Source of the DNA: Planctomycetota bacterium
GTDB lineage: Bacteria; Planctomycetota; Planctomycetia; Pirellulales; Thermoguttaceae
Direction: 5' to 3'
NCBI GenBank assembly: GCA_025353625.1
Contig: JANXOJ010000534.1
Span: 1-44,561 of the forward strand
DNA length: 44,561 nt
Shown here: positions 3,168-37,065 of the stretch, piece after piece
How the letters are laid out: each line of letters opens with the position of its first letter
Numbering within the stretch: the first letter of the stretch is position 1
Notes under the pieces: model-generated
What the model was told of the DNA's origin: nothing
The model's input: only the letters and a program-made list of their open reading frames with translations
The model's database searches: none
Made by a program: the position numbers and the translations under genes

Positions 3168-3442
3168 GAATTGTAAATTACGCACGCAAAAAAGTACTCG
3201 TTCGCCCCGTCCCCGGCACCCGGGAACTCGATATGGGCCATCGAGAATCACGCATTATATAAGGAATGTGAATAGTCGGCAATGGGAGTGTAAATGCTGC
3301 AAAACGAAAAAATGCCGTTGAAACGCTGGACTTCTCGCCCTATTTGGGGGAGTATTGCGCCAAGTGGCCTAATGATGCCGTCCATGGAGTGGATGCCCCA
3401 CCGAGTTTGCGGATGCGAATCAGAAAGGAAGAAAACAATTTG

Positions 3443-4144
3443 TTATTCGACCCTTCGGTTCCTTGCCTTCTCGCTAAACGGCGGATGTTGCCGCAAGATC
3501 GCGTGACATTCTCGCACGCGTCGCTCGACTTCGGCCAACAATTCACTCTCGTTGCGACCTTTGATCTCGGCAGGCGGGATTGGTTCGCCGAAGTGGATGT
3601 GGATTGTGCCCAAGCCGGGCAGCTTTTGCTTGCGAGGCCACGCGTCGAAGGCTCCCTCGATCGCCACCGGTAGTATCCAAGCCCCCGATCGATCGGCTAA
3701 AAATGTAAATCCGGCGCGGAACGGAGCTACTTCGCCGTCGCGCGTTCGCGTTCCTTCCGGGAACATCAAGACCATCTCGCCCCGCTTCAATCGCCGCAGC
3801 GACTCTTTGATGCCGCTCAATCCCAGGCCATCACGATCGATCGGTATGGCATCGAGCGATTCGATTAGCCAGCGAAAGGGTGCGAAGCGAAATAGTGACA
3901 GCCTAGCGAGAAAGTTCAACCGACGCGGACAGCATGCGCCAATCAAGGGTGGATCGAAATGGCTTTGATGGTTCGATACGACCAATACGCCGCCCGACGT
4001 GGGGACATTCGCGCGGCCGGATATACGCAAACCGTAGGTGGCCACGCCGACCAAATAGAGGAAGTGGCGGAGGAGTTCGTACCAAATGCGGCTGGCTAGC
4101 GAACGCTGGGACATGGGTAAGGGATTGCAAATTGCAAATATCAA
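3443..4144 (-). CDS. plsC: 1-acyl-sn-glycerol-3-phosphate acyltransferase (PlsC family)
   Basis: The acyltransferase HX4D motif (NHQSHFDPP) and the FPEGTRTRDG motif are present, with an N-terminal hydrophobic segment. The start could instead be the ATG at 4114. Confidence 0.85.
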   Translation of the reverse strand: MIFAICNPLPMSQRSLASRIWYELLRHFLYLVGVATYGLRISGRANVPTSGGVLVVSNHQSHFDPPLIGACCPRRLNFLARLSLFRFAPFRWLIESLDAIPIDRDGLGLSGIKESLRRLKRGEMVLMFPEGTRTRDGEVAPFRAGFTFLADRSGAWILPVAIEGAFDAWPRKQKLPGLGTIHIHFGEPIPPAEIKGRNESELLAEVERRVRECHAILRQHPPFSEKARNRRVE

Positions 4145-5231: not shown

Positions 5232-6326
5232 ACCGAAAATTCTCTTCTCGAAGTGTCCAATGGATGCTCCGAACAGTTTTTTGGCAAGAATTTTCGCAAA
5301 CGGAAAAATATTTTCGCCTCCGTTCTCGATAGCACGACGCGCCCATTCACAACGCATCAAAGCATCTCGATTACAACGCGCGGCAGGTCTTGAAATTTGT
5401 TGCGTCGACATGCATTCAAGCGATCGACGATGCGCATTGAAGTTGCTGTCGAGAATCGCATCGAATCTGTTTTGAAGTGCGTCCGTCGCTTTGCGTTCGT
5501 CGATGGAGGGTCGCGTATCGATCGAGCATCGCATGGGGTTCGTCCGACGCATCAACGAGAGTGATTTGTATCGTGCAATTTCATCGCGGATTGCGGCGCG
5601 ATACGATGCATCATGCGGTCGCTATTATTATCGCAACTGATTGCAAAACAAGACTTTATGGCAACGACTCGTGGTTGCAAGTCGAGACGTTTAGACGCAC
5701 GAAGCGTCTGCCAATTGATGTGTGCAGCGCAACGGCGAAGGAGCCATCACCATGTGAGTTTTTCTTCATCGCAAGATGCGATAAGCGATCCAACGGAGCC
5801 GCTTCGTGAGCGTCGCTCCACGTTGCGATGCGCGTCGATGAGCGCGTTGTAAAGTGTCGCGTTCAAACGAACAGCGCACGTTGCAAGGAAGCAGCGACGA
5901 TGCAAGTTTTGCGTTGGCTGAAACGTACTTCGCGACGTTGCACTTGATGTCTTGAAATGTCGCGCGTAGGACGTTCGCGACGAAGAAAATTTTGGGATTG
6001 AACAAGAATTGAGCTTGAATAAATTTTGCAACGCGATAACATTTAGAGAGTTGGGGCCTTGGAGGCTCTACTCTGCGAGTGCTCTTGTGAAGGAAGAGAT
6101 GCTCGCGGGAAGAAGTTTTGGAGCGAGTGACGACATGAAATCGTTCGGCTTCGTGTCGACAGCAACATGTTGCAACATTCGATTCCTTGTTTCCGGAGTG
6201 CATTGTCGGAGTCTCAAACCTTTTTTTGATTGGCGAGGTGCCTTAAGGTGCCGGGTCGATGAATGGCGGGTTGGGAAACGAACGACAAATGACGCTCCCA
6301 AATCGAGTTTGTTAGGAGAACGTACT

Positions 6327-6622: not shown

Positions 6623-7363
6623 TCACCCATCCGCCGAATACGGTGCCGCCTTGCCGCTTAGCTCGCTCAAGGCATTCCGGGCAGCCCGCTGCTCGGCTTC
6701 TTTCTTATTTCGTCCCCATGCGGCTTGATGGCGATTGCCGCCGACCTGAGCGGCGATTTTGAAGCACTTACTGTGATCCGGGCCTTTCTCATCGAGCAAC
6801 AGATAGATTGGCGTGGAGCCATGTTCGCGCTGGGCCAGTTGCTGGAGCATCGACTTGTAGTTGGTTCCCATCTCGCCATCGGCGGCCAGTTCGATCTCGG
6901 GCAACATGTGCCGCTCCAAGAATTCCCGCGCGGAGGCGGTGCCTCCATCGAGATAAATAGCGGCGATCAGCGACTCGAAAACATCCGCCAAGAGCGAGGG
7001 CGGCACCGACGGATGCGTCGTCATGCCCTTGCCCAGGATCAGAAACTCCTGCATTCCCAGCGATTCGCTGATCTTGGCGCAGGTGATACGGCTCACGACG
7101 ATCGACTTGATCCGAGTCAGGTCGCCTTCGAGGTACTGGGGATACTGGTGAAAGAGCAACTCGCAGACTACAGCCCCAAGAATTGCATCGCCGAGAAATT
7201 CTAGTCGCTCGTTCGACAACAGGCGATGCTCCGCCCCCGATGCGTGCGTGAGGGCTGCCCGTAGAAGGTTCTTGTCGGAAAAAACGTAGCCGACGCGCTC
7301 TTCACAACCTCTCAGTAGTGACTCGTACGGCTGTACGGGGTCGCTTTGCTCATCCATCAACAT
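6623..7363 (-). CDS. rnc: Ribonuclease III
   Basis: The RNase III signature ERLEFLGDAILG is present, with a C-terminal dsRBD-like segment (KSMLQQLAQ...GPDHSKCF...NKKEAEQRAARNAL). Confidence 0.93.
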   Translation of the reverse strand: MLMDEQSDPVQPYESLLRGCEERVGYVFSDKNLLRAALTHASGAEHRLLSNERLEFLGDAILGAVVCELLFHQYPQYLEGDLTRIKSIVVSRITCAKISESLGMQEFLILGKGMTTHPSVPPSLLADVFESLIAAIYLDGGTASAREFLERHMLPEIELAADGEMGTNYKSMLQQLAQREHGSTPIYLLLDEKGPDHSKCFKIAAQVGGNRHQAAWGRNKKEAEQRAARNALSELSGKAAPYSADG

Positions 7364-21316: not shown

Positions 21317-21658
21317 GTGAATATCTGGAAACTGTTCGCCACCGCTGTCGTCGTTTGGATGCTTGCTGCGGCTGCCTGGGCCGATGAACCGAAGCCTGCC
21401 GATCCGCCGTGCGTCCGCTGCAATGCACCGCTTTGCATCAGTGCCTGCAACTGTCCGAAATCGATGCCGTGCCTGGGCTGCCCGCCGTGCGGCGGAATAT
21501 GCGTGCCCTATTGTCGCAAGCCGATGCCGTGCCTTTCTTGTCCGCCGTGCGGCGGCATTTGCGTACCCTATTGCTGTAGGCCCATGCCGTGCCTCTGCCA
21601 GCCGATCGTGCGGCCGGATAGTTGCCAGTTGCCGTCGTGTTATGGAGCCGGGAAGTAG
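21317..21658 (+). CDS. Secreted Cys/Pro-rich protein with tandem 20-aa repeats
   Basis: A GTG at 21317 gives the signal peptide [22 protein letters not shown]. The mature part includes [40 protein letters not shown] and PMPCLCQP. About one residue in four of the mature part is Cys. The upstream part of the ORF from 21227 is not needed. Confidence 0.55.
21461..21615 (+). repeat. Tandem 60-nt (20-codon) coding repeat, about 2.5 copies
   Basis: Units at 21461-21520 and 21521-21580 are near-identical (..ATGCCGTGCCT...CCGCCGTGCGGCGG.AT.TGCGT.CCCTATTG..). A truncated third unit starts at 21581. Confidence 0.8.
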
Positions 21659-26239: not shown

Positions 26240-29200
26240 ATGAGGGTTCTCCGTGAAAGGGCCGCCATGTTCAGGCAGCCGAACGCCGCATTGCAGAGCC
26301 ATCGCGTGGTAATCTCCGCGTTCGTCGCGTTGGTGCTTATGTTCTGCTCGGTCGGGGTTGCGCAATTTCCCGGCGATGGGCCCATGCTGGGGCCGGATGG
26401 CCAACCCGTGCCCACCAATGCCGCAATGCAAGGCACGGCGATGCCCGGAAGGGGCGTTCCCGCGATACCGCAGGAGGAGATCGTCGTCGATGTTCGCGTC
26501 GAGGGCAATCGAACCATCGCTTTGGACAAGATTCTTTCTCACATTCGCACTCGAACCGGCCGACCGTTGAGCAATGAGCAGGTCGAGCAAGACGTTCGCG
26601 CGCTGAATAAGATGGGCGTGTTCTTGATTGTCCGCACGCGACGGCAGGAAGTTCAAGGCGGCTGCATCATTATCTTCCAGGTTGCCGAGCGGCCGCTGCT
26701 CCAAGAGGTGGCAATCGTCGGCAACGACACGTATTCCACGAAAACTCTGAAGAAGGAAGCCGACATCAAGGTCGGTGACGCAGCCGATCCGTTCGCGGTC
26801 GAAAACGGCCGCCGGCGGATCGAAGATTACTACCAGCGCAAGGGCTACAGTAAAGTCCGCGTGACGATTTTGGAAGGCAATAAAGCGGGCGACCTGCGGG
26901 CGATCTACGTTGTCGATGAAGGCAAACTACAAAAGGTCTATCAAATTAACTTTGTCGGTGCTCAGTTTGTCAGCGCGGCACGATTGAACACGGTTGTTGC
27001 CTCGCGATCACCCTGGCTCACCACTTTTGGCGGACATGCCGACCCGACCTATTACCTACTTGCCAGCGCGGTCGATCGCAAGTTGATCGATGAAGATGTC
27101 GCCAAGCTGACGGCCTATTATCGCGGCTTCGGCTTCTTCCATGCTCGCATCGGTCGCGAGCTGGAATTCAATGAGAACCAGCAATGGCTTACGATTACCT
27201 TCGTGATCGATGAGGGGCCGCGCTATGTGGTGCGCAATACGTCCTATTTGGGCAACACGAAGATCGCGACGGAAAAGCTGGCCAAGGATGCCAAACTGCT
27301 GGGCGGTCAGTTCTTCGACCAGAACCAACAGAATATCGATCTTCAGGCCCTTCGCGATCAGTACGGCGGCGAGGGATACGTGTTTGCCAAGGTCGAGGCC
27401 GACAACCGCTTCCTGGAAGAGCCCGGCAAGCTCGACGTTGTTTATAGCGTCGATGAAGGTGCTCGATATCGCGTCGGTCGCATCAACATTGAGATCAAGG
27501 GAGAAAATCCACACACGCAAATTACCACGGTGCTCAATCGCTTATCGTTCAAGCCGGGCGATGTGGTCGATCTACGCGAGATTCGCAGTAGCGAGCGGCG
27601 TTTGAAGGCTTCAGGGTTGTACAAAGTTGAACCGCAAAAAGACATCGGGCCCAAAATTGTCTATTCGCCGCCGGAAACGGAAGATAAAGAGACCGCGATA
27701 GCCGGCCGTCGCCGCACGAGCTACTATTCCGCACCAGGCTGCGGCGTGCCGATGGCACCCGGCGAGCGTTGCGTCGACCTTTATGTCAGTGGCGACCTCA
27801 ATGATCTGCCGGAAGCGGGCAATCGAGTTCAGCAGCCGCAACAACAGCCGCCGCAACAACAGCCGCAGACCTATAGAACATACGAAACGAATGGGGCGAC
27901 TCAGGGGGCGCCGCAGGGACAAGTTCAACGTTCTGGAGTGGTGCGGACGCAGTATGGGCCGAGCGATGCTTGGAACGCGCCGCAACAAGACTATGCCCCC
28001 GCCGCGCAGCCCTATCCGACGGCTCAACCCTATCCGACCGCGCAGCCTTACTCGGCCGCGCAGCCATACAACGCGCAACCATACAACGCGCAGCCATACT
28101 CGACCGCGCAGCCCTATCCGCCACAGCAAGGCAATGAGACCGCCGGAGCCTACAACCCGCCGGCCGCAGTTGCTTATTCCCAGGGAAATCCCCCGGCACA
28201 AGGTTATCCGGCACAAGGCTACCCAGCACAAGATAATCCAGCACCTCAGAATTATGCTTCGCCTGCCGCCGGTTATGCAGCTCCGGCCTACAACAATGCC
28301 GCACCGGCGACCGCCAGCGGCTATGCCAACAGTGCCGATCCGAACAATCCCGCCGCAACCGGTTCCGGCGTCTACTCGCCCGGCGGGCCGGCCATCGATC
28401 GACCACCCATCGCCAGTCTAGCCGCCGGCAACGGCCTTTACGGCGATCCTTCGCCGACGATGATTCCCACGCCCACCGGCGAGCCGCTGCGCGATCTGCC
28501 CTTCATGATCCAGCCGGAAGAAACGCAAACGGGCCGACTGATGTTCGGCGTCGGCGTGAACTCCGACGCCGGCGTTGTCGGCAACGTAACGCTCGACGAA
28601 CAGAACTTTGACTGGACCCGTCTTCCGACAAGTTGGGCCGATATCGTCGATGGCAAGGCGTGGCGAGGGGCAGGGCAGAAGTTCCGCCTGGAACTGGTGC
28701 CCGGCACGCAGGTCCAACGCTACATGGCCAGCTTTCAGGAACCCTATTTGTTCGACCTAGGCAGCAACCCGGTCGGATTGGGACTCAGTGGATACTATTA
28801 CCAACGACTCTACACGGAATGGACGGAAAGCCGCTCCGGCGGTCGCGTTAGCTTGAGCTACCAGTTTACGCACGACCTAACCGGCACCCTAGCCTTTGAA
28901 GGCCAGGATGTCTCCATCAAGAATCCGGAGTTCCCGGTACCCGATCTTTTGGCCGCCGTGGGCCACAACCAACTCTACAGTTTTTCGGCCCAGCTGGCCC
29001 ACGATACCCGCGACAATCCTTTCATGGCCTCCGAAGGTCACTTGATTCAGGGATCGCTTGCGGAAACGATTGGCACGTACCAGTACATCAGGGCATCGCT
29101 CGAAGCTACTCAATACTACAAGATTTTCCAGCGTGCGGATCGTTCCGGCAATCACGTGCTCAGCCTATCGATGCGCGGAAGTTATTCCGGTGACGACACG

Positions 29201-30363: not shown

Positions 30364-31512
30364 CTATTCCTCCCCCTGACCGCTCCGCATGCTGCAATAA
30401 CTTTCGTAGCGGCGAGCGTCCAGGTGGCCTTCCGCCACGGCGTTTTTCACCGCGCAAGCCTCTTCGTGCGTGTGCGAGCAGTTCGGGAAGCGGCAGAGGC
30501 TGACGTAGGGACGCAGGTCGCGATAATAGCCGGCCACCTCTTCAGGAATCACGTCCCACAGCTCGAAGCTTCGCATGCCGGGCGTATCGACCACGAATCC
30601 CCCGCACCCAATCGGCAATAGTCGCGCGGTCGTCGTGGTGTGCCGGCCTTTTTCGTTCTCTGCACTGACGGCGGCAACGCGGAGGTGCAGGTCCGTATCG
30701 ATGGCATTCAAAAGAGACGACTTGCCGACGCCGCTCTGCCCAGCGACGACGCTCTGGCGATCGGCCACCAACCGCCGCAATCGTTCGATTCCGAAGCCGG
30801 TTCGCGCGCTGACCATCACCAAATGATAGCCCATGCGACTGTAGACGCCGATCAGCGGTTGCAAGCTGGCCGGATCGATGAGGTCGATCTTGTTGATGCA
30901 GATCAACGGCCGGACGCGCCCTTTTTCAGCGGCGACCAGTATGCGATCGATGAGGTTCGGCTTCAAGCGCGGTTCGGCCGCGCTGGTAACGATCAGCAAC
31001 TGATCGACGTTTGAAACCAGCACGTGCCGACGGCCGCGGACGGCGCGAGAAAGCGTGCCGTAGCGCGGTTCGACGCGCTCGATGACGCCTTCGCAGGGTT
31101 GCGATTGTGCGATCGGCTGAAACACAACGCGATCGCCCGCCACGACCGGGTTCCGCTCGTCGGTACTCAAGGTTCTGAGAATCCGCCGCGTCGCACACTG
31201 CACCACGCTGCCATCGTCGCTAAGCACGGTACTGGAAATACCTTGGACGGAAAGCACGCGGCCCCGGCGACAAGTTGCCTCATCAACTTCCAGGTGGACG
31301 TTGGGGACTTCGGCACCGGCCATCTCGGGGGCCATTTCGGCGGTGTGGATCGTCCGCCGCCGCGTCAATTCGCCCTTGCCGCTGAGCCGCTCTTCCGTCT
31401 CGGGGGCCTGCTCCTGGAAGCCGTGCTCGTCAAATTCCCGCGTCCAGTTGGTCTTCCTGGCACGCGGCGTGCGGTTCTTACGAAATTCCGCCCTGAATTT
31501 CTTTTTGGCCAT
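30364..31512 (-). CDS. rsgA: Ribosome small-subunit-dependent GTPase A with a K/R-rich N-terminal extension
   Basis: The GTPase is circularly permuted: NVDQLLIV, INKIDL, GQSGVGKSSLLNA and DTPGMRSF. A C-terminal zinc knuckle, CRFPNCSHTHEEACAV, is present. Confidence 0.92.
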   Translation of the reverse strand: MAKKKFRAEFRKNRTPRARKTNWTREFDEHGFQEQAPETEERLSGKGELTRRRTIHTAEMAPEMAGAEVPNVHLEVDEATCRRGRVLSVQGISSTVLSDDGSVVQCATRRILRTLSTDERNPVVAGDRVVFQPIAQSQPCEGVIERVEPRYGTLSRAVRGRRHVLVSNVDQLLIVTSAAEPRLKPNLIDRILVAAEKGRVRPLICINKIDLIDPASLQPLIGVYSRMGYHLVMVSARTGFGIERLRRLVADRQSVVAGQSGVGKSSLLNAIDTDLHLRVAAVSAENEKGRHTTTTARLLPIGCGGFVVDTPGMRSFELWDVIPEEVAGYYRDLRPYVSLCRFPNCSHTHEEACAVKNAVAEGHLDARRYESYCSMRSGQGEE

Positions 31513-32007
31513 CTATATCGGCTCGTCGCTAATGCGGCCTTGCTTGAGCTTGCCCGGCTCGTCTTTGGAAATATCGAATCGCTGCGGACGCTCGCGATCC
31601 GTGGGAATCGGCTTCTGCCGGGCCGAACGACGTCCTTCCAAACCGGCTCGTTCCAAGAGGCTCTGGCCGAAAATCTTTTCTTCGGAGACTTCCGGCGGCG
31701 GCGGACCCACGGCACCCAAATCGACCGGGGCGTATTTGACCTCATAGGCATGCTTGGCCACCCAAAGAATATCGCCCGGATCGACCCGCTTTTCCGTGAC
31801 CCGGTTTCCATTCACCTTGACGCCGTTGCGGCTGTTCATGTCGCGGACGTACCAGAATCCAGATCGGATAAAAAGTTCGCAATGATGGGAGGAGACGTTG
31901 GAAAACCGCAGCACGATATCGCAACTCTCGCGACGGCCCACCAGGAGCGTTTCTTTCAACAAGGGAATGGGATCGCCACCACCTACCGGGAGTAGTTCGC
32001 CGTACAT
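31513..32007 (-). CDS. FHA domain-containing protein
   Basis: The FHA core is LLVGRRESCDIVLRFSNVSSHHCELFIRSGFWYVRDMNSRNGVKVNGNRV, followed by a basic disordered tail. The stop codon (31513-31515) directly abuts the rsgA ATG (31512). Confidence 0.85.
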   Translation of the reverse strand: MYGELLPVGGGDPIPLLKETLLVGRRESCDIVLRFSNVSSHHCELFIRSGFWYVRDMNSRNGVKVNGNRVTEKRVDPGDILWVAKHAYEVKYAPVDLGAVGPPPPEVSEEKIFGQSLLERAGLEGRRSARQKPIPTDRERPQRFDISKDEPGKLKQGRISDEPI

Positions 32008-32036
32008 TGGATTGCCTTTGCCTTACGTTAGTCGAT

Positions 32037-32074
32037 CTTGTCGCGGAAGCCGTACTGGCTTGTCGCGGAAGCCG
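32037..32074. promoter_or_regulatory. Two direct copies of a 16-nt motif upstream of the FHA-rsgA operon
   Basis: CTTGTCGCGGAAGCCG occurs at 32037-32052 and again at 32059-32074 (22-nt period). This is 30-67 nt upstream of the FHA start codon on the minus strand. Its function is not established. Confidence 0.4.
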
Positions 32075-32286
32075 GGCAGGGTGGGTGTCCAGCATTCCGT
32101 TGCATCCGCATCCGACGCCAAGAGCCACCAAGTAACGATATTTTCCCGGTAGTCGGTTTTCACTGCGACTATCACCACCCGTTCCAATATCCACAACTTC
32201 CACTTTTAGTCTAATAGTCGGCCATCGGCGCGTCAACCCACGGCAAGTGCAGGCGAACTGCAAAGTCCGGGGGCGGGTCCATTTTT

Positions 32287-32600
32287 GGTTCATCCGTATC
32301 AGGACCGCGCGCGGAAAGCGTTACGTCGTAAGCGGCTGCGCCGCTGGATTTTTTTAAGCATGGGGCGGGTGTCCAATCGGATTCAAGAAAACGGCCCCTG
32401 GTGATGAGAATTATCGGGGGCCTAGACGCGCCATGGGCGCACCGGAGCCTGGATATCCCTTGTCAGGTTGCGTCCCTGCGGAGCCCGAAGGTGTTTCTCC
32501 AGCCAGTCCCCTTGTAACCGAGTTGGCAAACGGTAGGTAAGTACTATTGGACACCCGACTTATGCCTTGAAAATCCCTCCGGGCGAAGCCTGCCGTGCGT
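32287..32600 (+). repeat. Copy 1 of a paralogous ~300-nt element (partner at 34501-34815)
   Basis: It aligns by hand with copy 2 in direct orientation. Shared blocks are GGT.CATCCG, GCGCGGA..CGTAAG, AGCGGCT..GGATTTTTT, GTGTCCAAT, AAAACGGCCCC, the identical 27-mer TGGATATCCCTTGTCAGGTTGCGTCCC (32450-32476), GTTTCTCCAG, and ATTGGACAC..GACTTATGCCT.GAAAATCC. Confidence 0.85.
32366..32557 (+). ncRNA. Candidate structured RNA core, copy 1 (unclassified)
   Basis: A 12-bp closing helix (32366-32377 / 32546-32557) encloses the core. An internal hairpin at 32393-32422 has a GAGA loop and G-U pairs that form only on the + strand. A small hairpin GCGCC-ATG-GGCGC is also present. The helices are preserved in copy 2 with compensatory changes. 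The strand and the RNA nature are inferences from only two sequences. Confidence 0.35.
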
Positions 32601-32639
32601 GTCAAGCTGGCGAATCGGGGTCAGGTAGAGACCAAAGCA

Positions 32640-32912
32640 CTAGCTTTGCCCAAAGTTCTCCGCAAACAGCTCTTCCAGGGCCGTTAGGGCGGCTTCGGCT
32701 TGCTCGCCTTCGGCCTCCAATGTCAAGCAAGTTCCTTTGCAGGCCCCGAGCGTGAGCAGTTGCAGAATGTCGGTGGCGTCCGCTTGACCATTTGGCGCGA
32801 CAATCACGACTTTACATTTAAATTGATGGGCAAGAAAGAATACCGCGCCGCTCCCTCGTAGGTTCAGCCCACCGGGGTTCGTTACGACGACATTCCGTGA
32901 ACTCATTTCCAT
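32640..32912 (-). CDS. HPr-like (PTS phosphocarrier fold) protein lacking the canonical His15 and Ser46
   Basis: The 90-aa product aligns by eye with HPr. TNPGGLNLRGS aligns with TAPNGLHTRPA, and NGQADATDILQLLTLG aligns with NGKSASAKSLFKLQTLG. A C-terminal EAEGEQAEAALTALEELF resembles SAEGEDEQKAVEHLVKLM. The active-site His position reads Asn and the regulatory Ser position reads Asp. Confidence 0.7.
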   Translation of the reverse strand: MEMSSRNVVVTNPGGLNLRGSGAVFFLAHQFKCKVVIVAPNGQADATDILQLLTLGACKGTCLTLEAEGEQAEAALTALEELFAENFGQS

Positions 32913-32985
32913 CTATCCCAATCCCTTGGCCGACAATCTCAGTTTAGACCACGTTGCGCCGCTGCGGCAGGACCTTCAACATATA

Positions 32986-33047
32986 TTCCGGGGACACAAT
33001 ACTTAATTCATGGATGATGCCGATAATTTAGTATTGTGTCCCCGGAA
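32986..33047. repeat. 62-nt palindromic element, copy 1
   Basis: The sequence is TTCCGGGGACACAATACTTAATT-CATGGATGATGCCGAT-AATTTAGTATTGTGTCCCCGGAA. It forms an 18-bp perfect stem, then one mismatch, then 4 more bp, with a 16-nt loop. Copy 2 at 34043-34104 is near-identical. Confidence 0.9.
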
Positions 33048-33201
33048 CCCTCCCCGTGCTAATCTCGCTATGCCTTGGATCTAACAAATCCCTTGCTCCG
33101 CGTCAACAATTAAGTTATGTGTCCCGGAATTCGGTGGTGACCGCTTACACTTTACGTGTAGTACGAGGAACAGTACTTTCCGCGCGGCCCAGTGAGGACT
33201 G

Positions 33202-34028: not shown

Positions 34029-34042
34029 CTGCACCCTTTTTA

Positions 34043-34104
34043 TTCCGGGGACACAATACTTAATTCATGGATGACGTTGATAATTTAGTATTGTGTCCCC
34101 GGAA
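34043..34104. repeat. 62-nt palindromic element, copy 2
   Basis: Both arms are identical to those of copy 1. The loop is CATGGATGACGTTGAT, differing at 3 loop positions. It lies in the same orientation, 1057 nt from copy 1. Confidence 0.9.
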
Positions 34105-34500
34105 CTCCATCGCGGAAAATCCTCGACGTATGTAACAAAGCGCAACTGGATGCAATTCAGAGACTTAAAATTGAGGTTCATCCGCCTGAAGCTTGCGCAA
34201 CGCTTTCACTGCGAACCCGGAGGGATGCAAATGCGAGGCGGGGTGCCCGCATTGACCCTGGAGAGGTCTCCAGCAATTAGCCGGTGGTAAGCGCAGCACC
34301 ACCACCGGTTTCGATGCACGATACAACCTTTTGACCCTGGAGGGAAGAAGAGGGGTCGAAGCGCGGCTGCGACCCATCCGGGGTCGGAAGGCACGCCCGA
34401 ACCGCTAACCCCGGGTGCGCTGCGCGACCCGGGGCTAATCGCTTATATCCCTCCGGGATTGGCTATTGACCCCGTTTTCTGCGGGGATATATTGATTTCA

Positions 34501-34815
34501 GGTACATCCGACTGAAGAGTGCGCGGACGTAAGTTGTTATGCAGACAGCGGCTTTGCGGCGAGGATTTTTTGAGGAATATGTCCAGTGTCCAATGGGATT
34601 CTCAAAACGGCCCCGGCGGATCGAGTACCAGCCGGGGCCTCAGCCGCCATTGGCGCACTGGAGCATGGATATCCCTTGTCAGGTTGCGTCCCCGCAGAGC
34701 CTGACTCCGTTTCTCCAGACCGTGCCAGTATAGCTGGGAACCAATCTCGGATGCAACCACCATCACCATTGGACACTGGACTTATGCCTCGAAAATCCAC
34801 GGGCCAACGGCCCGC
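34501..34815 (+). repeat. Copy 2 of the paralogous ~300-nt element (partner at 32287-32600)
   Basis: It shows the same shared blocks as copy 1. The identical 27-mer lies at 34666-34692. Confidence 0.85.
34581..34781 (+). ncRNA. Candidate structured RNA core, copy 2 (unclassified)
   Basis: A 16-bp perfect closing helix pairs GTCCAGTGTCCAATGG (34581-34596) with CCATTGGACACTGGAC (34766-34781). The internal hairpin GGCCCCGGC...GCCGGGGCC lies at 34609-34639. A small hairpin CGCC-ATT-GGCG is also present. Confidence 0.35.
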
Positions 34816-34880
34816 GCATTCTTGAGCCAGTTGAACCGTTTTTCAGTTGATCAATCCGGTTCGCCGGTCCGATTGCGTGA

Positions 34881-36941
34881 TTAGCGCTTGTAGAGCGGAT
34901 TTTGATCCTGGGGGAATTCCGTGGGTTTGGGTTTGGCGGCGTCGAGGGGAGTGACGAGAATGTTGTCGAAGAGGGCGGTGATGCGGTTGGCGGGGGCGTC
35001 GCCGGTAAGGAAGCCGACCATGCCTTTGGTGTAGAGGGTGTCCTGCTGCGTAATGAGTTGCGTGTCATCGACAAAGGCGGTGATGGTCGTGCCGGAGAAG
35101 CGGAGTTTGACGTTGTGCCATTGGTCGGGGGCAAAGTTGTCGGCCTTGGCGGCGGCGAGTTGGGTGCCGGCGCCAGCGTTGTTGCCTTGCTTGGCGGCGA
35201 AGAGGGCAACGTTGCCGTCGGAGGAAACGCGGAGGTAGTAGGCTTTGGGGACGGTGCCGTATCCGGTGCCGACGTTGTTGACGCGGCCCATGACGCCGGC
35301 GTAGCCGCCGCTTTCAAGAAGGATGTCGGCGGAGACTTCGTAGTCTTTCCAGTCCTGGTCGCCCAGGATGGTGTAGGGCATCCACTCGGGGGCCCAGGAT
35401 TGGGCACGTTTGTCGATGACCTGGCGGAGGCACTTGCCGTTGCCGTCGGGGCGGTCGGCGATTTCGAAGATGCCGACGATGTCGGCAGTGTAGTGGGGGA
35501 GGTAGCCGAAGGATTTGGCGTCGGCGTAATGTTCGAAGGTTTCGAGGTATGGCAGCGGGAAAGATTTGGCGGCAGGGACGTCGGGGAAGGCACCTTTTTG
35601 CTGGCCGGTGGTGGTGGAGATGGAGTAGATGCACTGCGGGTCGAGGGTGATGGAGAATGTGCCATTGGAGGGCATGATGTCGGGCTGGCGGATGAATTGA
35701 TCGGCTGCATTGCTGCGCCAGACGCAGAGTTTGGCAGTGGAGAGGCCATTGCTGACGGTGAAGACGAGGGTTTGGGGGGCTTTGGCGCCCTTGGTTTGGG
35801 CGATGATTGAGTAGTCGGATTCGGGGGATTTGAAGGTGACGAAGGTGCCGCCGCCGGAGAGAGTGCCGCAGGCGTTGTTGAGATAGTGCCAGCCGACTTT
35901 GACGAATTGGCCGTAGTGGGCGTAGCCCCAGAGGTTGGGGCGGGTGGCGTAGTGGCCGCTCCACGGAGAGTTAGCGATCATGGCGGAGGGTTGTTCGGGG
36001 TAGGACTCAATGGGGTAGACGGAGGCGACGAGGTACCAGTTGACGATCTTGGTGACGCCGCTTTTGAGGAAGTTCTCGTTGAAGGCCTGGACGAGGCTGA
36101 TTTCGCAGTCGAAGCCGTCCTTGTAAACGTGCTCTTCGGTGTTCCAGATGGGCTTGTTCATGGATTCGAGCAGTTGGCGGATTTCGGCAGACGCGGGGGC
36201 GGTGGCGATGGTGTGGTTGCTGACGGCATCGACCGAGTTGCGCAGAACCTCATCGGTGGCCATGGTGGGGATCCAGTTCCATTTGTCTCTTTGCCAGTTG
36301 TCGAAGGCGTGGACTTTGACGTTTTGCAGGCCATTGGCGTTGAGGGTGGTCTTGAGTTTCTTGACGAAGTCGATGTTAACGCCTTTTTCGTTGCGGGTGC
36401 CGATGGCGTCGAGGTCGAGGCCGTGCTCGGACTTGAGGCCCTTAATCCATTTGACGTAGTAGTCGGCCATGTCCTGGGACCAGAACTGTCCGTTGCCGAC
36501 CCAACCGGGGCAACCCCACGCGCAGGCGTCGAGGGTGATGGCGGGGTTGCGTTTCTTGGCTTCGGCCATGATCCACCACTCGTAGCCGCGGTAGTAGTTT
36601 TCATCGGTTTTGGTATGCATGTGGCTGGGCTCGGCGCCTTGGGTGGCGTTGCAGTCGCCGGGGACTTCGACCAGCAGGGTGAGCATGGAGGCGCCGAATT
36701 TGGGTTTGAAGAGCAGGTCGAGGACCTGGGAGCGCTGGGGTTCAGGGTAATCCTTCAGGAGGACGGAGGTCGCGCCGCCGCCGCTGACGGCACCAACGCC
36801 GTCGAAGCGCGGGCCGCCGGCATCGCCCTTGAGTGACACGGCCTGGTCGCCAAAGGCTGGCAGTGCAAAGCCAGCGATCGCCAAGCTGATGAGGGAAGTA
36901 ACGAGCGCGATGGGTATTCTTGTTTTGTTGATAGGTTTCAT
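34881..36941 (-). CDS. Secreted glycoside hydrolase family 59 (galactosylceramidase-like) with C-terminal lectin-like domain
   Basis: The product resembles vertebrate GALC as I recall it, along its whole length. [38 protein letters not shown] parallels [65 protein letters not shown] and SPWSGHY also match. The C-terminal part is [18 protein letters not shown]. The signal-peptide start [14 protein letters not shown] is at 36941. Confidence 0.85.
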   Translation of the reverse strand: [686 protein letters not shown]

Positions 36942-37065
36942 GTCGTGATCCTTGCCGAAGAACTTCATCCGCTGGTGGAGGAACAACGCGGAAGTTTGCT
37001 GCAACGCTGTGCGGTTAATTTTGAAACAGGAGCGAAGCGAATTCGTGAAGTCGCTTCGTTGTAGG

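Follow-up and report, generated by a model that had tools for sequence, protein, structure and literature searches.

Two structured repeats in a Planctomycetota contig are probably relics of foldback miniature inverted-repeat transposable elements whose conserved module also occurs beside ISL3 and IS110 transposases

RNA-IN/RNA-OUT and fold-back inhibition restrain transposase expression in IS10. ISPpu9 offers another case of leader and antisense restraint of a transposase, through its 5' untranslated region (UTR) and Asr9 (PMC12288879). The same insertion sequence (IS) provides the nearest parallel on record for an RNA module that moves both along with an IS and on its own: its derivative MITEPpu9 carries the ssr9 small RNA gene and has been described as a hitchhiking selfish element (PMC12288879). 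Here we describe two elements, copy 1 (32287-32616, 330 bp) and copy 2 (34501-34837, 337 bp), in a 44,561-nt stretch of DNA, hereafter the window, which is contig JANXOJ010000534.1 of a Planctomycetota bacterium (Thermoguttaceae; assembly GCA_025353625.1). An original prediction, made from the sequence, had proposed them as paralogous copies of a candidate novel structured RNA. We find that they are probably mobile-element relics and not a private RNA gene pair: with a probability of roughly 80%, both are old, diverged copies of a foldback miniature inverted-repeat transposable element (MITE) with ISL3-type terminal repeats, and their structured module also occurs beside ISL3 and IS110 transposases.

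Like MITEPpu9, these elements are short, non-coding, and multi-copy, their ends come from an autonomous IS, and their RNA-type module is found both linked to a transposase and alone. Unlike MITEPpu9, they have ISL3-type inverted repeats with 8-bp duplications instead of IS110 A/B boxes, their right half is an inverted duplicate of their left half (foldback), and their module is common to two unrelated transposase families and three phyla. No description of the module or the MITE was found in the searchable literature. For the annotation of the window the outcome is mostly deflationary, the pair being transposon debris and not a new host RNA. It also reveals a structured motif outside Rfam that is common to two mechanistically unrelated transposase families and to MITEs, across at least three phyla.

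Copies 1 and 2 align in direct orientation, as first described, with 73% identity over 234 nt (E = 3e-30) and 90% over a further 31 nt in BLASTN, and with a mean column identity of 79% in MAFFT. They share the 27-mer TGGATATCCCTTGTCAGGTTGCGTCCC (32450-32476 in copy 1), which lies within an 82-nt block of 84% identity. Both elements reach further in the 3' direction than first described, and their limits were reset to those given above because they align end to end with intact family members (MITEs in loci L118, L017, and L007). The core of each copy is conserved far above the rest of the element and its flanks. Within it, the structured module comprises four helices: S1 (the 5' arm with an internal segment), the P2 hairpin, the P4 stem, which closes a 9x9 internal loop, and the apical hairpin P5; most of the 27-mer falls in the P4/P5 domain. 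A covariance model of the module, R1, detects exactly two copies in the window. On our model, each copy would consist of a left ISL3-type repeat, a GC hairpin followed by GGATTTT, the ~175-nt module, ~50 variable bases, and an inverted duplicate of roughly the first 70-100 bases (arm plus terminal repeat), which would have become shorter than the left part through indels. The parts are as follows.

32287..32616, + strand: copy 1, read as a complete but decayed type-A foldback MITE from its alignment to L118, L017, and L007
32287..32312, + strand: copy 1 left terminal inverted repeat GGTTCATCCGTATCAGGACCGCGCGC, which fits the family consensus GGTTCATCCGRCTGAAGnGTGCGC
32331..32355, + strand: copy 1 GC hairpin AGCGGCTGCGCCGCT followed by GGATTTTTTT, terminator-like on the + strand in a scan for such sites
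32346..32518, + strand: copy 1 structured module (S1, P2, P4, P5); R1 score 133.6 bits on the + strand, 19.1 bits on the - strand
32346..32377, + strand: copy 1 5' arm, with two possible partners, the 3' arm (MITE fold) or 32428-32444 (S1)
32393..32422, + strand: copy 1 hairpin P2, with family-wide compensatory changes at 9/11 and 11/11 pairs in two alignments
32447..32504, + strand: copy 1 domain of P4 stem, 9x9 internal loop, and hairpin P5
32546..32576, + strand: copy 1 3' arm, which repeats the 5' arm in inverted orientation
32593..32616, + strand: copy 1 right terminal repeat, degenerate
34501..34837, + strand: copy 2, read as a better-preserved type-A foldback MITE from its alignment to intact MITEs
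34501..34526, + strand: copy 2 left terminal inverted repeat GGTACATCCGACTGAAGAGTGCGCGG
34563..34734, + strand: copy 2 structured module; R1 score 155.4 bits on the + strand, 17.2 bits on the - strand
34563..34596, + strand: copy 2 5' arm
34609..34639, + strand: copy 2 hairpin P2
34645..34660, + strand: copy 2 partner of the 5' arm inside the module (3' strand of S1), CGCCATTGGCGCACTG
34663..34720, + strand: copy 2 domain of P4, internal loop, and P5
34678-34705: copy 2 P5, with flanking loops at 34669-34677 and 34706-34714
34766..34798, + strand: copy 2 3' arm
34812..34837, + strand: copy 2 right terminal inverted repeat

Well-preserved standalone members of the family have sharp ends, ISL3-type terminal inverted repeats of ~25 nt, and 8-bp target-site duplications, and are therefore MITEs. 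Six copies from Pirellulales are ~95% identical to one another as far as GGTCCTTCCGGGTTTGTTGTGGG on the left and its inverse on the right; there the likeness breaks off abruptly, and AT-rich 8-mers, near-identical on both sides, flank them. Elements of the window's subtype end in the consensus listed above, and two of them, L017 (TTATATGT) and L118 (ATGTAAAC), have target duplications that are perfect over 8 bp; in the family at large, L011 and L022 match at 7/8 positions. Family members lie at unrelated sites, some of them nested in other insertion sequences, and interruptions of the frame that crosses the core fall at positions that vary from copy to copy. Many copies with target-site duplications had been named beforehand as the mark of a simple MITE, and this is what the family displays.

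The likely partner of these MITEs is an ISL3-type transposon. ISL3 elements generate 8-bp target duplications and have repeats that begin with GG. A complete ISL3 element at L007 has perfect 23-nt repeats, GGTCCATCCGGGTTTATCGTGGG, which match the Pirellulales MITE repeat at 20/23 positions in direct comparison, and a MITE of the window's subtype is nested in the leader of this same element. Two transposases were tested against Pfam, and both matched DDE_Tnp_ISL3 (1e-71 for L007 and 3e-72). An ISL3-family DDE transposase acting in trans would recognize the terminal repeats and create the 8-bp duplications, and the MITE would have kept the module when it formed from the left end of the IS.

The window copies themselves lack coding capacity. 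A tblastn search found no IS110 transposase in the window, and no ISL3 transposase was seen there, though no search was aimed at ISL3; both copies are therefore probably relics. In copy 2, the terminal repeats match at 20/26 positions and the flanking 8-mers, TGATTTCA (34493-34500) and GTTTTTCA (34838-34845), at 5/8. Some of the evidence weighs against reading the window copies as MITEs. The terminal repeat of copy 1 is degenerate (11/26) and its flanks, CCATTTTT and GGGGTCAG, form no recognizable target duplication, while the 5/8 duplication of copy 2 is itself imperfect. Consequently, the MITE status of the window copies rests on their homology to intact members, and the loss of repeats and duplication in copy 1 suggests that both are probably immobile. 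In addition, an independent function of the module in MITE copies could lie behind the conservation of the core, although conservation in the active source elements would look no different.

The long-range inverted repeats noted originally are present in both copies and longer than first described, at 30 nt and 90% complementarity in copy 2 (arms 34567-34596/34766-34795) and 37 nt and 73% in copy 1 (arms 32341-32377/32546-32582). In each element the left ~95 nt repeat the right ~70 nt imperfectly and in inverted orientation, and the whole MITE is a long imperfect palindrome. It is this inverted duplicate that would account for the long-range closing helix. Thus the helix closing ~170 nt, whose compensatory changes had been taken as the signature of a structured RNA, is better explained as the inner part of the extended inverted repeat that a foldback MITE has. 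It does not belong to the module. Where the module occurs in full ISL3 and IS110 elements, no 3' arm is present, and an internal segment takes its place as the partner of the 5' arm. The third small hairpin of the original prediction (32428-32444 and 34645-34660) is better read as the 3' strand of a helix formed with the 5' arm, namely S1. The second hairpin, P2, is real in both copies and covaries across the family.

The repeat family is spread over at least three phyla. We scanned one genome per species for the exact central 18-mer ATCCCTTGTCAGGTTGCG and recovered 30 loci, 27 of which are true homologues with extended flanking similarity. These come from Planctomycetota (Pirellulales, Planctomycetaceae, Gemmataceae, Phycisphaerae, and Kuenenia), Acidobacteriota, and Verrucomicrobiota, with a maximum of 6 copies, on 4 contigs, in one metagenome-assembled genome (MAG) of the Pirellulales. 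A different 20-mer, GCAGAGCCTGACTCCGTTTC, occurs on at least 120 metagenome contigs; the module is abundant in soil, sediment, and wetland, and many of the matches lie at contig ends, as expected of repeats. The annotated plasmids searched had no similarity to the element. At L029, in a MAG labelled Schlesneria paludicola DSM 18645 (~6750-7000), the 3' part of an ISL3 transposase gene is split by an inserted MITE copy. Insertion into another mobile element is directly evident here, and the locus indicates a cultured strain for study of the family.

Foldback formation around the module seems to recur. At L009 (~1-700), a foldback derivative of an IS1111-type element has ~110 nt of inverted right-end sequence in place of most of the transposase, and the module again lies between long inverted repeats.

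The module is a genuine conserved structure with very strong covariation, and it falls outside Rfam. The alignment A3, from which R1 was built, comprises 23 genome-derived copies from all contexts; 86.7% of its cells are paired and 23/40 pairs have changes on both sides. R1 gave 99 matches in the first 100 metagenome loci. We then used as a test set 95 distinct metagenome sequences that lay outside the training of R1 (alignment A4). A4 was fitted to the model, and the search pattern determined the 3' strand of P5. Of the cells in this alignment, 89.8% are paired, and 29/40 pairs have compensatory changes (398 cells). None of 500 shuffles reached the observed value on any of five measures, and slid controls pair at only 29-45%. 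Compensatory changes affect 9/12 S1 pairs among the 23 sequences and 11/12 among the 95. Between subfamilies the sequence of S1 is fully replaced with pairing kept: CGGUG-U-CCAAUGG with CCAUUGG-CG-CACCG in one, AGGGC-AAAA-GAAUGUG with CACAUUC-UCCC-GCCCU in the other. The loop of S1/P2 is variable, whereas the 9x9 loop of P4/P5 is near-invariant. Several pairs are broken in copy 1, above all in P5. Single-sequence folds are more stable than shuffles on the + strand (z = -4.5 for copy 1 and -8.4 for copy 2), and copy 2 also folds well on the - strand (z = -7.0), so single-sequence folding does not pick a strand.

No known RNA family or coding function was found to account for the module. The Rfam check that had been proposed for both copies gave no match at E <= 10, and with Rfam 15 there was none at the gathering threshold in the window and none at E <= 0.1 in nine related loci; 6S, tmRNA, SRP, riboswitches, and HEARO were ruled out in this way, and ARAGORN found no tRNA or tmRNA. 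The claim of a structured element outside known families therefore stands as far as the ~175-nt module with its four covarying helices is concerned; its extension to host RNA genes does not. An open frame (IPCQVASPQSL..) runs through the core and joins the transposase frame in some IS110 copies, but it contains stop codons or frame changes in most copies, and conservation is therefore at the nucleotide level. A retron RNA was also considered and rejected: none of the ten neighbouring open reading frames (ORFs) in the window had a Pfam reverse transcriptase match, in a search that was not aimed at reverse transcriptases, and the only recurrent long ORFs beside family members encode IS110- and ISL3-type transposases. 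A covariance model such as R1 could be used to mask common false calls of novel non-coding RNA in genomes of Planctomycetota and Acidobacteriota.

In one ISL3 clade, the module is the native 5' leader, lying downstream of the left inverted repeat and ahead of the start codon of the transposase. Five complete elements share the order left repeat GGCTCTTCGGCAGAATCTGTGGGT, hairpin GGGGCTCTGCCCC, GACCCCGGGATTTT, module, 100-150 nt, a transposase of 413-417 aa, and right repeat, and all five lack the 3' arm. ISL3 and IS110 copies alike have an equivalent of the GC hairpin, and after it GGATTTT, ahead of the module; in ISL3 copies, a predicted hairpin UUCCGG/CCGGAG 3' of the module buries the ribosome-binding site.

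Three IS110/IS1111 lineages also carry the module in their non-coding ends. Their transposases are only 26-29% identical, and all three lineages match Pfam DEDD_Tnp_IS110 and Transposase_20. In the Acidobacteria type, the module lies ~150 nt upstream of the transposase and the left end is sharp (ACGCATTATGAAAG in at least 19 copies). It lies downstream of the transposase in the IS1111 type, which has 13-bp subterminal repeats, and in the Kuenenia type, where it is near the right end. Among the 120 metagenome matches listed, many of them on short contigs, 28 have an IS110-family gene in fixed geometry to the module, 12 have an ISL3 gene, and 25 are foldback forms with the 3' arm. In Acidobacteria-type IS110 elements, left-end boxes occur at ~-201 and +64 relative to the 18-mer: at L030 and ~20 similar loci, the left-end box ACGCATTATGAAAG-GCGCC appears again in degenerate form just past the module (..CATTATGAAAAAAGGGCGC). 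At L015 the module segment stands by itself and no transposase accompanies it. By analogy with the A/A' boxes of ISPpu9/ssr9, which this arrangement resembles, these observations suggest that the module segment can move as a separate unit.

As to what the module does, our tentative choice, to which we give somewhat less than an even chance, is a cis-acting leader RNA that controls transposase expression. Three features fit a leader: the place of the module between the end of the IS and the start of the transposase, the terminator-like hairpin ahead of it, and, in ISL3 copies, the stem behind it that masks the ribosome-binding site. Such a leader could insulate the transposase gene from outside transcription or gate its translation. 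Like the leaders of IS10 and ISPpu9, the module lies between an IS end and a transposase start codon, behind a terminator-like hairpin. Unlike those leaders, it is much larger, more conserved, and portable between IS families, and regulation by it is predicted. Weighing against a leader is its place in IS1111-type copies, where the module is downstream of the transposase, unlike a simple 5' leader. A further contrary point concerns the folded strand, since single-sided changes in the helices read as A-C 180 times and as G-U 63 times on the + strand, which points to the - strand. If the module is a regulatory leader, then transposons exchange expression-control modules.

It is unlikely that the module belongs to a novel kind of functional RNA, associated with transposons and mobile between unrelated elements (ISL3, three IS110/IS1111 lineages, and MITEs), with the window copies as active RNA genes. 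Were this so, one conceivable function would be that of a guide or scaffold RNA, spread by MITEs, that retargets or regulates IS110 recombinases in trans; another would be that of a leader that senses a ligand or host factor and ties transposition to the state of the cell.

Marginally less probable again is a product on the - strand, or ends that face outward: an antisense RNA of the RNA-OUT/Asr9 kind, or outward promoters that drive the FHA-RsgA genes left of copy 1. The A-C mismatches counted above are G-U pairs on the - strand, where the P5 loop also reads GGGA, a GNRA tetraloop. A promoter-like TGGACA-16-AAAAAT is present on the - strand in both 5' arms (32375-32348 and 34592-34565), directed outward, with the copy-1 site toward the FHA gene, and the scan found five promoter-like sites against 1.7 expected. 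Antisense RNAs in IS110 leaders also have a precedent in ISPpu9 (PMC12288879). However, G>A changes are about twice as frequent as C>T at unpaired sites, and this background bias explains much of the A-C excess, which therefore says little about the strand; assignment by G-U versus A-C counts is confounded by it, and we rejected that approach. The earlier argument that G-U pairs favour the + strand drew on the copy-1 hairpin only, and the signal across the family is ambiguous: the + strand is favoured by the orientation of the transposase and by the unvarying U-G pair of P5, which would be an A-C mismatch on the - strand, whereas the A-C excess and the P5 loop favour the - strand. Consensus promoter scans, for their part, are weak evidence, and weaker still in Planctomycetota. 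Transcription from the predicted - strand promoter of copy 1 into the FHA-RsgA genes is a possibility.

We consider it improbable that the module is an orphan bridge RNA (seekRNA) that guides IS110/IS1111 recombinases, with MITE copies as stand-alone guide genes acting in trans. The resemblance, drawn from descriptions and with no sequence comparison to published bridge RNAs, is twofold. In three IS110-family lineages the module occupies the non-coding end, on the transposase strand, where bridge RNAs sit (PMC11208160), and, as described for bridge RNAs, its two stem-loops contain large internal loops, of which the first varies and the second is strongly conserved. At L028, both S1 strands share 7-8-nt matches with CCATTGGAC upstream of the transposase, at a left-end junction that is only inferred and has no defined boundary, and a preprint suggests that a bridge RNA can act in trans (10.64898/2026.08.14.744561). 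Against this, DDE-type ISL3 elements, which have no need of a guide RNA, carry the module as their native leader, so that, unlike a bridge RNA, it is not specific to DEDD recombinases. IS lineages whose ends are unrelated share the near-invariant 9x9 loop, which therefore cannot be the donor guide for all of them. Cognate complementarity of the left flank was likewise absent in 19 copies of Acidobacteria-type IS110, where the flank matched its own RNA over 6.0 nt and the RNAs of others over 5.9 nt. L027 and L030 gave only scattered 6-8-mer matches to IS ends, and the window has no IS110 recombinase. Guide function was thus rejected on the negative flank test and weak k-mer matches; the L028 match is suggestive and not confirmed. 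Were the module a guide-type RNA, the copies carried by MITEs would give RNA-guided recombination systems a new means of spreading their guides.

Only slightly lower stands the case for an element that acts at the level of DNA alone, through hairpins or cruciforms of single-stranded or supercoiled DNA, or through protein-binding sites used in transposition, with no functional RNA. The conflict between the strand tests is what would be expected if both strands fold, the MITE is palindromic as a whole, and foldback derivatives have formed repeatedly around the module, as at L009. Nevertheless, to our knowledge, neither ISL3 (DDE) nor IS110 (DEDD) transposition uses ~175 nt of folded DNA, and a large, asymmetric, near-invariant internal loop between covarying stems is typical of RNA.

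Least probable of all, and very unlikely, are paralogous host genes for a new trans-acting small RNA: strong covariation without an Rfam match, cores conserved above their flanks, and the intergenic position of both window copies would suit them, but the family has terminal inverted repeats, target duplications, unrelated sites, nesting in insertion sequences, and 6 copies in one genome, its distribution over three phyla is patchy and tied to transposases, several pairs are broken in copy 1, and syntenic loci from four relatives, fetched via FHA homologues (73-81% FHA identity), have no BLASTN similarity to the element at the corresponding place.

The genes neighbouring the two copies are all on the - strand. 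Along the + strand the order is RsgA, FHA, copy 1, HPr, a 65-nt palindrome, small ORFs, a second palindrome, copy 2, GH59, and rhamnosidase, with the following coordinates.

30364-31512, - strand: RsgA GTPase
31513-32007, - strand: FHA-domain protein
32640-32912, - strand: HPr
34881-37004, - strand: GH59 glycosidase, with the rhamnosidase next

Synteny with the four relatives breaks exactly at copy 1. In all four, a class-A rnpB lies upstream of, and divergent from, the FHA-RsgA genes, in the slot that copy 1 occupies in the window; it was identified by BLASTN in every case and by Rfam in two (290 and 279 bits). The regions compared with window positions 32007-32287 are as follows.

L001 5420-5860: rnpB region
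L002 5278-5662: rnpB region
L003 ~5250-5695: rnpB region
L004 ~3392-3828: rnpB region

The window has no rnpB there or anywhere else, HPr stands in place of an RHH-like gene and rnpB, and HflX does not follow RsgA. A stretch of 19 nt on the - strand of copy 1 matches rnpB in its P4 region. RNase P class A (RF00010) was therefore considered and rejected: the model gave no match even at E <= 10, the 19-nt match arises from substitutions specific to copy 1 that are not in the family consensus, and the RNase P helices are lacking. We take the resemblance to be a coincidence at a synteny breakpoint.

The 65-nt element occurs at 32984-33048 and 34041-34105. Its two copies are 95% identical, each forming a near-perfect palindrome with a 23-bp stem (TTCCGGGGACACAATACTTAATT...), and they bracket ~1 kb of small - strand ORFs, one of which contains a weak SAM_HAT_C fragment. 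No copy was present in 154 fetched loci, and no link between the palindromes and copies 1 and 2 was found. They may be another small mobile or repeat element.

Two features lie close to the left end of copy 2. A sub-threshold match to Acido-Lenti-1 RNA (34428-34460; 19.6 bits against a gathering threshold of 37, E = 0.23) is ~40 nt upstream, and the best sigma-70-like site of the region (34466-34493; TTGACC-16-TATATT, 10/12) abuts that end and points into the element. Elsewhere in the window, a tandem 60-nt repeat of 80% identity (21452-21571) and short repeats with an 18-nt period inside the large Omp85/POTRA (BamA-like) ORF (28002-28143) are both probably coding repeats.

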